This document shows, piece by piece, positions 5,397 to 61,291 of a stretch of 64,000 bases of DNA. The stretch comes from Aplysia californica. Its lineage: Eukaryota. The stretch lies in NCBI RefSeq assembly GCF_000002075.1, contig NW_004797335.1, forward strand, positions 725,124 through 789,123, written 5' to 3'. How positions within the stretch are numbered: position 1 is the first letter of the stretch; the number at the start of each line of letters is the position of its first letter. The notes beneath the pieces were generated by a model. The model had not been told where the DNA came from and searched no databases. It saw only the letters and a program-made list of their open reading frames with translations. Made by a program: the position numbers and the translations under genes.

Positions 5397-5807
5397 CCCC
5401 CCCACCAGGGCAGTGCTACTGACTAAAGTTGTCTTTAGGTCATTCCCAAAGAAGGGATATATTAACATTTTCTTATGCACAGTAGAATTGTAATTGGGCT
5501 GATTTATCAATGTCATTCTCATTCTGTGCCAGAAAACATAGGGGGAACTGCTGCTTTTTCTTTCCTTATCCTTGCAATCATCATTTTTCCTATTCACTTC
5601 TTTTGTATGTTTGTCACTCTCTTGTGAACTGCTATTTCCGGGGTGCCTTGATAGTCGAAGCAGACTTTGTGCTGTTGAGGCTAAAGAGGTGAGCAGAGTA
5701 AGCTTGATTCCTCGTTTTAACTTCTCTGTTGACATCCACCCTTGGTGCTCATATGACCTTATGCAGTTATGAGCGCCGTAAAACCTTACTAAAACCAAAA
5801 CTAAACA
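5397..5807 (+). mobile_element. Family A ~400-bp non-autonomous retroposon with shared stem-loop tail
   Basis: Head CCCC..GGGCAGTGCYACTGACT, tail GGYGCTCATATGACCTTATGCAGTT.GAGCGCCGTAAAAC, A-rich end; TSD AGACTGAA. Confidence 0.85.
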
Positions 5808-5876
5808 AGACTGAACTCGTGATTTCATTGTATTGCATAAAAATACTTTCATCTTTGTATGTTTTTCATATTTCAG

Positions 5877-5919
5877 ATGGGGGACATTGTCAAATGTGGT
5901 TATGTCAAGAGATATAGCA
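5877..5919 (+). CDS. Evectin-like coding exon 1 (MGDIVKCGYVKRYS)
   Basis: tttcag|ATG acceptor directly before the start codon; A|gtaagt donor; PH beta-1 pattern VKCGYV. Confidence 0.85.
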
Positions 5920-6150
5920 GTAAGTGGAATGAATAATGATGTTTCCATTTTTTAAATATATTCTCATTGTAGAATAGTATTGTATTATTACATTTGCAAT
6001 TTTCAATTTGGATATATAATAGGGAACCAAGTTGTTTCAATTTTGCCTACAGACCAGCACACTGTTGGGTGCTTCCCAGCAGAAAGGTAGAGGTAACCAA
6101 CAAAATGTCTTTCTCGAGTTGGAATTGAACTTGGGTCTTTTTGCAGCGTA

Positions 6151-6941
6151 TAGTCGAACCTGCCCGGATGGCCACCTCTATAAGACGGCCACCTGTACAA
6201 ACGGACACTTTCCATTTCCCCCCTTGCGTTTTTTCTATATAATTTAACTGTGTAAAATGGGCACCTGTCCAACGCGGCCGCGGCCACCATAATTTAATTC
6301 AGTACCCCTATCACACTAAGCAATAACACCTGTCTTAGACGGTCATCATGGTGACTCCATTATGTTTTGTCATAAATTGTGTTTTGGCCCCTGGCGTTGT
6401 GGGCGAGCCGTCATAATTCAATCACCTGTCATTGTTGTTAGGTAGTCCCTCCAACCGATCATGTTGCGTAGGCCCCTCCCACTGTTGACCAATAGCTATC
6501 AATTTTTAGCTGCTTGTGAGGTAAGCGTGTGATCCCTCATAACCCATAAGCCCCGCCCAGAACTCATGAGGGGTCACTGTTTACCCAGTCTGTAACAAAG
6601 TAACAAAGGACGTCAACATGAACTTGTTACAGAAGTGTCGCTCGTTCTCCAAGTGGTGGCGACCCATGTGTTTGTTTTAACATGGCACTCGGTCTTCCTT
6701 GTTTGATACATTTCGTTTTATTGTCACTCTTGAGCAAAATCAGAGACAAAATAAAAATTACAAACGAAATACAAATCAACAACACCAACAAAGACAACTT
6801 AATGGGGCTACTTTCGATTGGGGTCTCAGATGGGAATGGTTTGTTTTCTTTATCTTGATCAGTCCTGCCTAAGACGGCCACCTGTCTCATACGGCCACTT
6901 TTCTCCTTGACAAGGGTGGCCGTCTTACACAGGTTTGACAG
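6151..6941. mobile_element. Tc1/mariner (pogo/Tigger-like) MITE
   Basis: TA TSD; TIR TAGTCGAACCTG/CAGGTTTGACAG; repeated AAGACGGCCACCTGT subterminal motifs. Confidence 0.75.
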
Positions 6942-7483
6942 TACTTGCTCTGGACACATGCCAGGAGAAAGATGGGAGGAACTCTAATCTTTGGCCCTTC
7001 ACGGGAGTAGCACTTATATGTCTTCTACCTACACAATACAGGGCTTATCCAAAACACCACAGACATTGTATTGACTTTGTGCAAACTTATAGACTGCTTC
7101 TGAGTTGGGTCTTTTTTTTCATTTCCATTTGGTCAAATGCTAAGTTGTGTTTTGCGTGTTTATGTATCTATTTTTGAGCTTCCATTGTATTCTTGATGCC
7201 CGGGTTTTGGAGGGAAAGGGAGGCTCTAATATGTACAGTTGTAGAAGTAAGTGTTGGTATAAGGGATGATTCACAGTCTTGTTAAGTTTGTTTTCCAATG
7301 TGCATGTATATGGGCTTCTGTCTGTTGCGGTAAAAATCCAACTGATTATACAGTGGTGAAAGGTCTTTGCCTGTTGTTTCAGGGGAAGGTAGTCAATGGT
7401 TTAGTTCTGTTTAATAGTGGCCAGGCATTTGAAAATTATTCACCTTTTCCTACCTGTGATTGTCCTGTCAGTCCTATCCATAT

Positions 7484-7660
7484 GTGGGTGGTTGGCGGGT
7501 GCTCTTGTGTGGTTTGCTTCTTCTTTCCTATCAAACGTCTATCTTCTTTATCTCCCCTCCTTATTTTTTGTGTTTGTTACTCTCTTGTAGCACCTCTAAT
7601 CTTCAGCACTTATATGACCGTATTGTGTTGCAAGTGCCAAAATACACTTCCTAAAACTTT
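7484..7660 (+). mobile_element. Family B ~180-bp retroposon
   Basis: Head GTGGGTGGTTGGCGGGTGCTC, pyrimidine-rich middle, GCACTT..AAGTGCC tail variant. Confidence 0.85.
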
Positions 7661-7801
7661 TTAAAATCTGTATGTCATTGTCATGTTATGATTTTGAGTG
7701 CTTACCATCTCTTTTCTTAGTTTTGTTAGGCCTATGTATAACAGTTTTGCATAGATATTTTGTGAGTCTTCTTGACTTCTTTTTTTTTCTCTGTTTCTCA
7801 G

Positions 7802-58420: not shown

Positions 58421-59174
58421 TAGGGTTGGGTCGGGCTCGCAAAATTAGCGTCCGCGGGTAACGAACTACCCGCTGGCACTACCCGCAAACGAGCGGACGG
58501 GTAACGAACCGTCCGTTTGTGAAGAGTAGTTCGCTACACATCGTGCAGAGACAAAAGTTCGTTTAGCGAGCGAGCGGACCAAGAGACTCCATGTATTCGA
58601 GCAGGCGGACGGACGGACGGGAATGACTCCTTCCATTGCCTACAACTTACAACCCCCCCCCCCCCCCCAAAAAAATTAATAAATAAATTAAAAAATCACC
58701 CTCCTGCCTCACATTGTAGCTAGGCGTTCACGGCGGAAATCCCCCCCCCCCCCCTCGCCTTTGCGATCATAGGAACGTACACAGTGTGCCCCACGCACGA
58801 GGTGAAAGGTTACACACATAGTACTACGTCACCAGCCTCTCTCACTCCCTGTGGCACCGCTAGTGGTTTGAAACATCAGGCCTAATTAACAAACAATAGA
58901 CGATGGGTCTAATCTCGCGTCGAGTATCTCGTCTGCTAGAGTTCGTCCGTTCGCCCGCCCGCCCAGTGAATAAAATTGAGGAGCGGACCCAAAAAACGAA
59001 CTGACTTGAGGCTTGAGGTCCGCAGTCCGCTCCCTGAGAGAGTCAAATTGTGGAGCGGACCCAAAAAACGAACTGTCTTGAGGTTCGCAGTTCGTTCTCA
59101 GGGCCGTCCGTTACCCGTTCGCTCTGACTGAGTCCGCGAGTAACGAACCCGTCCGTCCGCTCGCCCCAACTCTA
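58421..59174. mobile_element. hAT MITE
   Basis: 8-bp TSD CTGCAAGG; TIR TAGGGTTGGG/CCCAACTCTA; repeated GAGCGGAC subterminal motifs. Confidence 0.85.
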
Positions 59175-59408
59175 CTGCAAGGCCATTTTTTTCATACCGA
59201 GATGTAAACACAGAGACTGCCAAACTGACTGCAACTAGATTATCTAGGGTACCTAACTATGAAGTTGACTAATTCTTGCTCTTGTCCTGCAAGGCTAAAC
59301 AACTTCTAGAATTGGGTAAAACTCTTAGACATTGTCAATATATAAAACCGTGGAATAATCGATACTTAAGAAAAACAAGCACACTTTAAAAAAATTCTGT
59401 CTGCTCAC

Positions 59409-59542
59409 CTTTTTCCTATGTTTGCCAAGTAAGAATAACCCGAGTACATAGACAACTTCCACCCTCTGCACCAGTTCTTCTGTGATGGTGAGAGCTTGCT
59501 GGGCCACCATAGGGCTGCCGTCTGATGTTGGCTCCGATACAC
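59409..59542 (-). CDS. TRPC4AP: TRPC4AP exon (...RVEVVYVLGLFLLGKHRKK)
   Basis: tacag| and AAG|gtgagc; matches human KLEVLYVLCVLLMG. Confidence 0.9.
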
Positions 59543-59852
59543 CTGTACAATTGGAGTGAGGAGGATTTCAAAGGGTAACATTTTACTTTTACTGCAAAAT
59601 TACACCCATTTGCATCAGTATCAGCGAAAGGAAGAAAGATGAATCATTTCTTAGATCATTTTAAAAAAAACAAAAAACGAAAGGCATTTGTAGCCAATAT
59701 ATTTTATCAGGAGGGTAAAGGCACTGATTTTACAAAAACGAGTAAGTTTTGCATCCAAACAAATAAAAGATCACTAATTAATTTTTTTTCTTCATATTTC
59801 TAAGATAGTCTCAAAAGCATTACACATAATAAAAAAACAAAAACAAACATAC

Positions 59853-59975
59853 CTCCGATAAAGTCATCGAAATCATCAGCTGCTTGAGGTTCATATACTT
59901 CATCTGCCATTTGGTTGTCAATCCACTCCATCCAGCAGTCCAATTCACTGGGCATGCCTCTGTATCGTGGAGTGT
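59853..59975 (-). CDS. TRPC4AP: TRPC4AP exon (YTPRYRGMPSELDCWMEWIDN...)
   Basis: tacag| and G|gtatg; matches human ELEEWYTWLDN. Confidence 0.9.
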
Positions 59976-60386
59976 CTGTACAAACGATACACATATGTGC
60001 TTTCAACCTTCACATTTCATTGACATTCTTAATCTCTTAAAAGAACACTGTATTTATAAGTGGTGTTTTGTTGGATTTGGCAGTTAGATACATTTAAAGA
60101 GAAACTAAAACAACTGAGTGTCCTGTCTCATTTCTTGGGAATATATATTATAATTTCTAAGGAACAACACTGCCCAACAATTAAAAAACAGAGCCCGACC
60201 TACCCATAAAATGTAAGCTTCTGCCTTGCAATTTATATTTCCATGAGAGTCTCTTTGGAAGTGGGTTTTCTTCTCTCAGACATTACTAAGAATAAAAGAT
60301 CTAGCTCTGACATTGAATTAATACATTTTATTTTCGTGTTAATTAAAATTTTGGATTAGAAGAGAAAAATGTACAGCATTACTTAC

Positions 60387-60449
60387 ATTCTTTATTGATC
60401 GCAATCTGTACAAGTCGAGGCAACAATTCTGGTATACTTAATAGTAGCT
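60387..60449 (-). CDS. TRPC4AP: TRPC4AP exon (ELLLSIPELLPRLVQIAINKE)
   Basis: tgcag| and |gtaagt; matches human LLSIPGFVERL. Confidence 0.9.
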
Positions 60450-61291
60450 CTGCAGAAAGATTGAAAGTTTTGGATATACACACAACATTCAACAATGCAT
60501 GAAACTAGATGGAAGAAATATACCAGGTTTGTTCAATAACATCGAAGTATGAGAAATACTGAATCTAAAATCAATTTTTATTTACTGTATTTTTTAAAAA
60601 GTGACTTGGCCAAAAACAGTTAAACAGTTTTCGAGTTGTCACCAACTCCAGTCTCTGGCCTCATTCAACGTCCTGAATTCCTTGGAGGACTCACAATTCA
60701 CAAAGTGTCTGGCTCCCCTTAATCAACCTTCTTATCCATGGTAAGCTCATGCACAAAGTCAGCTCTTTGAGTCACTCATGCAAGGGGCTTGCATTCCATT
60801 CTAGAATCTATTTTCACCATACCTTTAATAAATCCATGTTTATATACTATTGAAACCATTTCATTCCCTCCAATTTCAATGTGAGTACAACAGAAAGCAT
60901 ATCATCAACAGAGTAACCCTCATTAGAGTATTAAATAATTTCAAACTATTCAGCTGTAGTCTCCTATAAATCTGACGGTGGGAGGACACAAAAGATAACA
61001 TTATACACACAGATACAGTTGAGGGAAAGTTAAGGCAGAAGTCAAACAAACTGCAATATATTTTTTCAAGAACAGAACCAAACACCAAAACTGAAACAAA
61101 GCAGCAGACCACACATGAGCATCCACCAACCAACATCTCTACACATTACATACATAACCAGAAACCAGACAAAAATGGACAAATATATAATATAAACATG
61201 TACATTTTCCTAGACTGAATCAAGTGGAAATAGTCAATAGACACCTCAATAAAAACAAAATTTAAGGACAAGAAAAGAGAGCCTCATATAC

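Follow-up and report, generated by a model that had tools for sequence, protein, structure and literature searches.

Retroelements in the introns of animal genes have been reported as either antisense-biased or unbiased with respect to their hosts, with antisense bias described for L1, long terminal repeat (LTR) elements and the long interspersed nuclear elements (LINEs) of flies (PMC2911107). A sense excess is described for the ingi-related SIDER1 and SIDER2 of Leishmania, which are, like the elements studied here, short LINE-related retroposons; they are about four-fold sense-biased in gene clusters and lie mostly sense in 3' untranslated regions (UTRs) (PMC2689281). Similar in build are the mollusc LP-SINEs, short interspersed nuclear elements (SINEs) headed by a Nimb 5' UTR (Matetovici et al. 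2016, PMC4758252), which share with our elements a non-tRNA head, a CT-rich body, target-site duplications (TSDs), a short tandem tail, a link to I/Nimb elements and possibly transcription by RNA polymerase II (Pol II). Here we describe three families of short retroposons, A, B and E, in Aplysia californica, starting from a stretch of 64,000 nucleotides (contig NW_004797335.1, positions 725,124 to 789,123; hereafter the window) in which two convergent genes carry them almost exclusively in the sense orientation. Our literature search returned no report of this sense-biased pattern; Repbase and most subscription papers lay outside that search, and the families may be named there.

Copies in the window were located by profile and BLAST scans, with split copies counted once. 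The non-tRNA A, B and E copies were sense to their host gene in 28/30 cases: 12 sense and 2 antisense in the domain of the plus-strand gene, and 16/16 on the minus strand in the domain of the minus-strand gene, TRPC4AP. Copies of SINE C, a tRNA-headed control family with the same tail, were 1:1. An initial annotation of the window had proposed that retroposons sharing a tail lie mostly sense to their host gene and flip at the convergent boundary, and our scans bear this out. It placed its copies, 28 sense among 31, at the right positions and strands, but one of its three exceptions, at 17432, belongs to the tail of a SINE C copy. The excess beyond chance that it expressed as a one-sided binomial of about 2e-6 recurs elsewhere in the genome, as described next; the p-value itself was overstated, because nested copies (14581/14724, 50613/50783 and the group at 12661) are not independent.

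The sense bias is a real, genome-wide pattern. We analysed 60 further regions of 10 kb, anchored on matches to WD40 and Helicase_C exons, in which gene strand was assigned independently of the repeats; all copies come from one reference assembly, and kinase-anchored loci, mostly single-exon genes, were excluded from the orientation counts. The three families together were found in 211 sense and 21 antisense copies (A 25:5, B 139:12, E 47:4). By regional majority, 46 regions were sense, 5 antisense, 1 tied and 8 empty, so that 46/51 decided regions were sense. The bias persisted when copies within 400 bp were clustered (134:19), when the three richest regions were removed (157:19), and when only copies lying strictly between exon matches were counted (46:9 in 26 regions). 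Pairs of A/B/E copies lying more than 1 kb from each other in 60 random tiles shared an orientation in 148 cases and differed in 24; for pairs of an A/B/E copy with a C copy the counts were 22:36 (tile L198 overlaps L075; it was kept for this analysis and dropped from the nearest-neighbour and enrichment analyses). The suggestion that these elements could mark the direction of transcription holds best in broadly expressed genes (91% sense) and more weakly in ion-channel genes, described below.

Other repeat families in the same 60 regions gave sense:antisense counts of 15:8 (C), 19:15 (F), 19:11 (G, from a model built on 3 copies), 21:18 (H), 23:21 (I), 3:8 (K), 3:4 (M) and 1:2 (J). The orientation contrast between A/B/E and C was significant (p=0.0016), and the youngest SINE C copies had no bias. 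At the best genome matches, flanks were T-rich:A-rich in 6:1 of 9 cases for A, 17:2 of 29 for B and 11:9 of 29 for C, a contrast between A/B and C with p=0.039 when both flanks were used; neighbouring copies agreed:disagreed in strand 37:5 for A/B and 5:12 for C. The bias therefore likely tracks the non-tRNA head or body and not the shared tail.

Family A is about 400 nt long and family B about 185 nt, and both have a core rich in pyrimidines and a hairpin tail of 60 nt that terminates in an A-rich repeat. Family E is a third, older family with a B-type head and a related tail. The modal TSD is 11 bp in A (found in 19/38 copies), B (100/193) and C (27/41), and the TSDs of all three share a weak A-rich start; from these shared features A, B and C likely use the same machinery. 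For E a TSD was called in only 9/52 copies, mostly doubtful, and its tail resembles that of a second LINE. The A/B/C tail is the 3' tail of one I-group LINE (loci L134-L136). With this LINE-shared tail and variable TSDs, A and B are non-autonomous non-LTR retroposons, clients of target-primed reverse transcription (TPRT). A promoter scan with box A and box B patterns found a B box in 0/39 A, 0/203 B and 0/60 E copies (0/302 together) vs 39/45 C copies. By this measure C is a tRNA-derived SINE, and A, B and E are not.

We compared copy densities in these housekeeping regions with those in 25 regions (of 40 planned) of ligand-gated ion-channel genes, assumed not to be broadly or germline expressed, whose mean skew was -0.03. 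The density of sense A/B/E copies was 36.9 per 100 kb in housekeeping vs 6.3 in ion-channel regions, and that of antisense copies 3.7 vs 2.4; the total in random tiles was intermediate, at 25 per 100 kb. Families C, F, G and H were at least as dense in the ion-channel regions as in the housekeeping ones, and housekeeping enrichment set A/B/E apart from them (odds ratio 6.3, p=6e-12). The bias arises from a surplus of sense copies, not from a deficit of antisense ones. A bias growing with age, which the initial annotation had named as the mark of selection, did not appear: sense:antisense ratios were flat across identity bins (30:3, 52:4, 39:6 and 31:2). Young A/B/E copies were enriched as well (9.6, 3.8 and 2.4 per 100 kb). 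The flat ratios and the enrichment of young copies together disfavour a detection artefact.

The reading we favour, to which we assign a probability of about 0.55, is that the elements are directed at insertion to the template strand of genes transcribed in the germline, in a manner that depends on the element RNA rather than on the shared tail. The bias was likely gained at insertion rather than later. Targeting by the partner LINE machinery, one of the two causes proposed in the initial annotation, is favoured in this form; the machinery by itself would be insufficient, because SINE C, with the same tail and TSD length, is not clearly biased.

The other proposed cause was selection against antisense copies. 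In its general form, insertion would be random with respect to strand, with antisense A/B/E copies purged afterwards or U-rich sense copies retained where introns are highly expressed. Purging might act through cryptic splice acceptors in the reversed tail repeat, a purine-rich exon-like body, double-stranded RNA or an antisense promoter. The reversed A/B tail repeat does read as a U-tract plus AG, and acceptor-like motifs number 4 in antisense A and 0 in sense A. The terminal repeat of SINE C differs from that of A and B and is without this AG when reversed, so that C could escape purging. Accumulation of older SINEs in the genes of bivalves (PMC11481361) would also suit selection. However, purging does not fit the densities, because antisense copies are similarly dense in the two gene sets, being no rarer in housekeeping genes, and sense copies are six-fold denser there. 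Nor does selection readily account for a bias that does not grow with age, for antisense B and E copies that have no acceptor motif under the same pattern, for sense A copies that have three donor motifs, for UTR copies in the window that are sense too, or for C, F, G and H, which are not retained in excess in housekeeping genes. Selection keeps some probability, because only fixed copies of one assembly were sampled and the reversed A/B tail is acceptor-like, unlike that of C; we consider it rather unlikely. An RNA contig joint that skips the copy at 46312 was considered as an insertion polymorphism and rejected, since one side spans 21 nt and its ends lie off the TSD.

Element RNA carried in a nascent pre-mRNA might instead be reinserted as a copy into the gene it came from, with its direction kept, which would make copy-rich genes richer still. 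Nested copies on the same strand are common, in the window and at loci L120 and L139, and the co-orientation of A/B/E pairs in random tiles would follow from such local re-insertion. The nearest neighbour of a copy lay in the same region in 7/159 cases vs 5.4 expected, and the best genome matches of the window copies lie on other contigs, which makes local re-insertion very improbable indeed. The sense bias is not a product of tandem duplication, against which the initial annotation had cited the distinct TSDs of the copies. Loci L139 (G000:C92:969500-978000) and L120 are hot spots of insertion where 12 to 20 B/E copies share one orientation, many of them nested.

In a passive origin, a preference for target sequence would act together with an excess of T over A on transcribed strands, or sense copies would be easier to detect. 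In 60/60 housekeeping regions the gene strand was T-rich, and A/B/E are themselves T-rich. The start of the TSD, however, is A-rich in the orientation of the element and would favour antisense insertion; the preference is weak and common to C, and the youngest copies are no less biased than old ones. We therefore give this origin hardly any weight.

The structure of family A brings in a further possibility, that it is a small nucleolar RNA (snoRNA) retroposon, with an H/ACA-like head, a downstream intron, a mini-exon and a LINE tail, and that its sense copies are released from introns by processing and retained. In single folds the head, about 140 nt long, forms two hairpins (one of six at z=-3.1), and an ACA lies at 125-150 in 32/39 A copies. 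Sense A copies have a pyrimidine tract, in some cases an AG, an exon-like stretch of about 50 nt and two donor motifs downstream; at the AG position most copies have GG instead (for example 46312-46708). Moreover, snoRNA retroposons often lie sense in introns (PMC1687206). Against this identity, no Rfam match was found, ANANNA occurs in 7/39 copies, one compensatory cell was seen, and there is no stable consensus fold. A 10-nt antisense match to partial rRNA (1654 nt of rDNA) was equalled by 43/300 shuffles. No parent gene was found, although a genome-wide search for one was not made. Finally, most of the bias comes from B and E, which the snoRNA reading would leave unexplained. We consider this reading very improbable. 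The rDNA fragments in the assembly (L151-L156) are interspersed with non-rDNA sequence and gaps.

Twenty endonuclease loci yielded two related LINEs with an ORF2 (second open reading frame, ORF) of 1226 aa that contains APE, reverse transcriptase and RNase H Pfam domains; the upstream ORF, of 490-540 codons, had no Pfam match. By an ORF1 together with an ORF2 of this composition, the predicted partner is an I-group LINE, which we tentatively take to be of the Nimb type from the two-ORF layout and the type of tail. Both LINEs begin with the same 38 nt despite 66% DNA identity in ORF2. By inspection this end might form an H-type pseudoknot with a TATA-like loop, and downstream of it lies a hairpin in which the two LINE families differ by one compensatory change. 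The LINE 5' ends at L267, L268, L269 and L270 (G000 C280, C254, C331 and C137) represent a candidate structured RNA; ribozyme families (HDV-like, twister, pistol) gave no Rfam match at E<=5 on four LINE 5' ends. Several LINE copies have a duplicated 5' end (L279, L288, L294, L295).

Family A starts with ACCCCC, like the LINE, and old A copies share with it a G-run plus an AT motif (p=0.02). Families B and E start with GTGGGT, as does the LINE from its seventh base, with matches falling mostly in the pyrimidine tract. An 11-nt identity between the B head and 28S rRNA (7/300 shuffles) was set aside, because flanking bases form part of it and it is also similar to the LINE 5' end. At 8/9 loci the LINE strand matched that of neighbouring A/B/E copies; of three loci of other LINE families, 1 lay on the same strand as its neighbours and 2 on the opposite strand. 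A/B/E were likely mobilised by the I-group (Nimb-like) LINE.

The mechanism of directed insertion, which we infer entirely from the fixed copies of one reference assembly, can be outlined as follows. In the absence of a Pol III head, A/B/E RNAs would derive from Pol II transcripts. The non-tRNA head, or the Pol II origin, might change the assembly or destination of the particle, for example through loading of ORF1p or host factors, so that particles would reach transcribing chromatin and make the first nick on the template strand. Sense insertion corresponds to reverse transcription primed from the template strand (PMC5717806). A possible guide to that strand would be docking of the RNase H domain of the LINE on RNA:DNA hybrids. 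Because the elements lack an internal promoter, a copy would act as a source only when it lies sense in a transcribed gene, and this restriction would favour lineages that insert sense in transcribed genes. Poly(A) reads on repeat copies showed no pile of starts at the heads; these reads could not be assigned to loci and are uninformative on short RNAs.

Several observations weigh against directed insertion. Since only fixed copies of one assembly were available, strong and fast selection could have produced the same pattern. The comparison of housekeeping with ion-channel genes is a proxy for germline expression, and the ion-channel set comprises only 18 A/B/E copies, which are still 13:5 sense. 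SINE C is not proven unbiased (21:12 when pooled over the gene-anchored sets, p=0.16), and SINE F leans sense in the same pool (32:17, p=0.044); from these two counts, tRNA SINEs may have a mild sense lean of their own. The contrast in flank skew between A/B and C falls to p=0.24 with the upstream flank alone, and the flanks of the LINE itself were T-rich in 12 vs A-rich in 5 of 19 young copies (p=0.12). Sequence homology between the heads and the 5' end of the LINE was weak, with 3/14 tests at p<=0.05, and because of this weak alignment support we treat a LINE origin of the heads as a lead only.

In the plus-strand domain of the window, family A lies sense at 5400-5801 (+, likely in intron 1, TSD found), 11106-11514 (+, an older subfamily, TSD found), 20554-20925 (+) and 24984-25395 (+, in the 3' UTR, with stranded RNA reads). 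Family B lies sense at 7483-7658 (+), 14581-14905 (+, two nested copies starting at 14581 and 14724), 15497-15678 (+) and 27230-27410 (+, just beyond the read-covered UTR), with a B head fragment at 20432-20479 (+). A sense E copy at 10384-10546 (+, 38 bits) had been overlooked. One antisense exception is the A copy at 9471-9847 (-, TSD found). The other is a B copy at 12661-13036 (-), split by a sense B (12699-12881, +) into parts starting at 12661 and 12886 that cover collinear model positions 141-177 and 3-152. SINE C is sense at 8325-8653 (+, ending in a stretch of N) and antisense at 17433-17826 (-, with the shared tail).

All copies in the minus-strand domain are on the minus strand and sense: two B copies and a tail fragment at 33191-34632 (within or at the end of the TRPC4AP 3' UTR), an A copy inserted in an E fragment (41077-41537), the 5' part of a B (41955-42063), a short, weak tail fragment (43309-43343), B copies at 43654-43835, 45398-45579 and 47335-47518, an A copy at 46312-46708 (TSD found), B head fragments at 49925-49978 and, weakly, 61099-61135 (E 0.012), two nested B copies at 50613-50941 (starts 50613 and 50783), and a single B split by a later insert (54767-55281, with parts at 54767 and 55212). 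The copies at 24984 and 33191-34632, together with the one at 27230, show that not all copies are intronic. The window also contains two MITE-like (miniature inverted-repeat transposable element) copies with long internal inverted repeats in opposite orientations (1660-2266 and 4681-5246), a tRNA-headed SINE F (30687-31041), and minisatellite arrays with units of about 20 nt (31151-31885 and 47069-47310). Rfam and ARAGORN scans of the window returned nothing relevant.

The plus-strand host gene (5878-26250, +) has its stop at 22099, a Pro/Tyr-rich tail and a long 3' UTR; its N-terminal exons had no Pfam match and are PH-like by eye only. TRPC4AP (33232-64000, -) has its stop near 38896 and a 3' UTR reaching at least 33.2 kb, as spliced contigs with CT..AC joints over 33232-39020 indicate. 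Gene strands are backed by stranded RNA reads, by such joints, by Pfam DUF3689 and by TRPC4AP homologues, and a protein identical to the minus-strand product is labelled Aplysia californica at its source. Stranded poly(A) reads lie on the plus strand at 21.6-26.2 kb and on the minus strand at 28.8-30.9 kb; AT skew and RNA strand both flip near 28 kb, placing the convergent boundary at 27800-28300. The minus-strand reads (28800-30900) lie beyond the main TRPC4AP UTR and may represent a longer isoform or a separate transcript. Near the sense B copy at 33191-33359, RNA contig depth falls from about 44 to 3. The tail of this copy may supply the 3' end of TRPC4AP or adjoin it; breaks in contigs also occur at repeats.

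The combination of the same tail, the same TSD and a different head provides a built-in control, by which targeting vs selection becomes testable. We tentatively propose, at somewhat less than even odds, that in an animal LINE system promoterless client RNAs are inserted with strand specificity into genes transcribed in the germline, that host pre-mRNA feeds the new copies, and that the head rather than the tail switches targeting on. If targeting is true, an RNA element coupling TPRT with transcription by Pol II would be implied. A/B/E copies are also usable as markers of strand, and they may record which genes are expressed in the germline.

Such a system would differ from those already described. 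Although LP-SINEs are similar in build, the word 'orientation' appears nowhere in the main text of PMC4758252; LP-SINE heads are homologous to about the first 70 nt of a Nimb 5' UTR, the A/B/E heads weakly match the 5' end of the local LINE, and A/B/E are at most candidate LP-SINEs. SIDERs are extinct, domesticated 3' UTR regulators in polycistronic units (PMC2689281), whereas A/B/E occupy an animal host, are mostly intronic and of all ages, and have a same-tail control family without the bias. The snoRNA retroposons are also promoterless and active only when sense in an intron (PMC1687206), which the intron-exon-like body of A recalls; unlike them, A/B/E number thousands of copies per family and have an I-group tail, and a snoRNA identity of A is supported only by two hairpins and an ACA. 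The orientation bias of human L1 through transcription-coupled repair may likewise originate at insertion, but it has the opposite sign, is a depletion and not an excess, and would affect all clients of the reverse transcriptase alike (PMC5717806). Directed insertion of A/B/E, if true, would mirror the antisense bias of L1 and represent R2-style co-transcription on a genome-wide scale, independent of rDNA.

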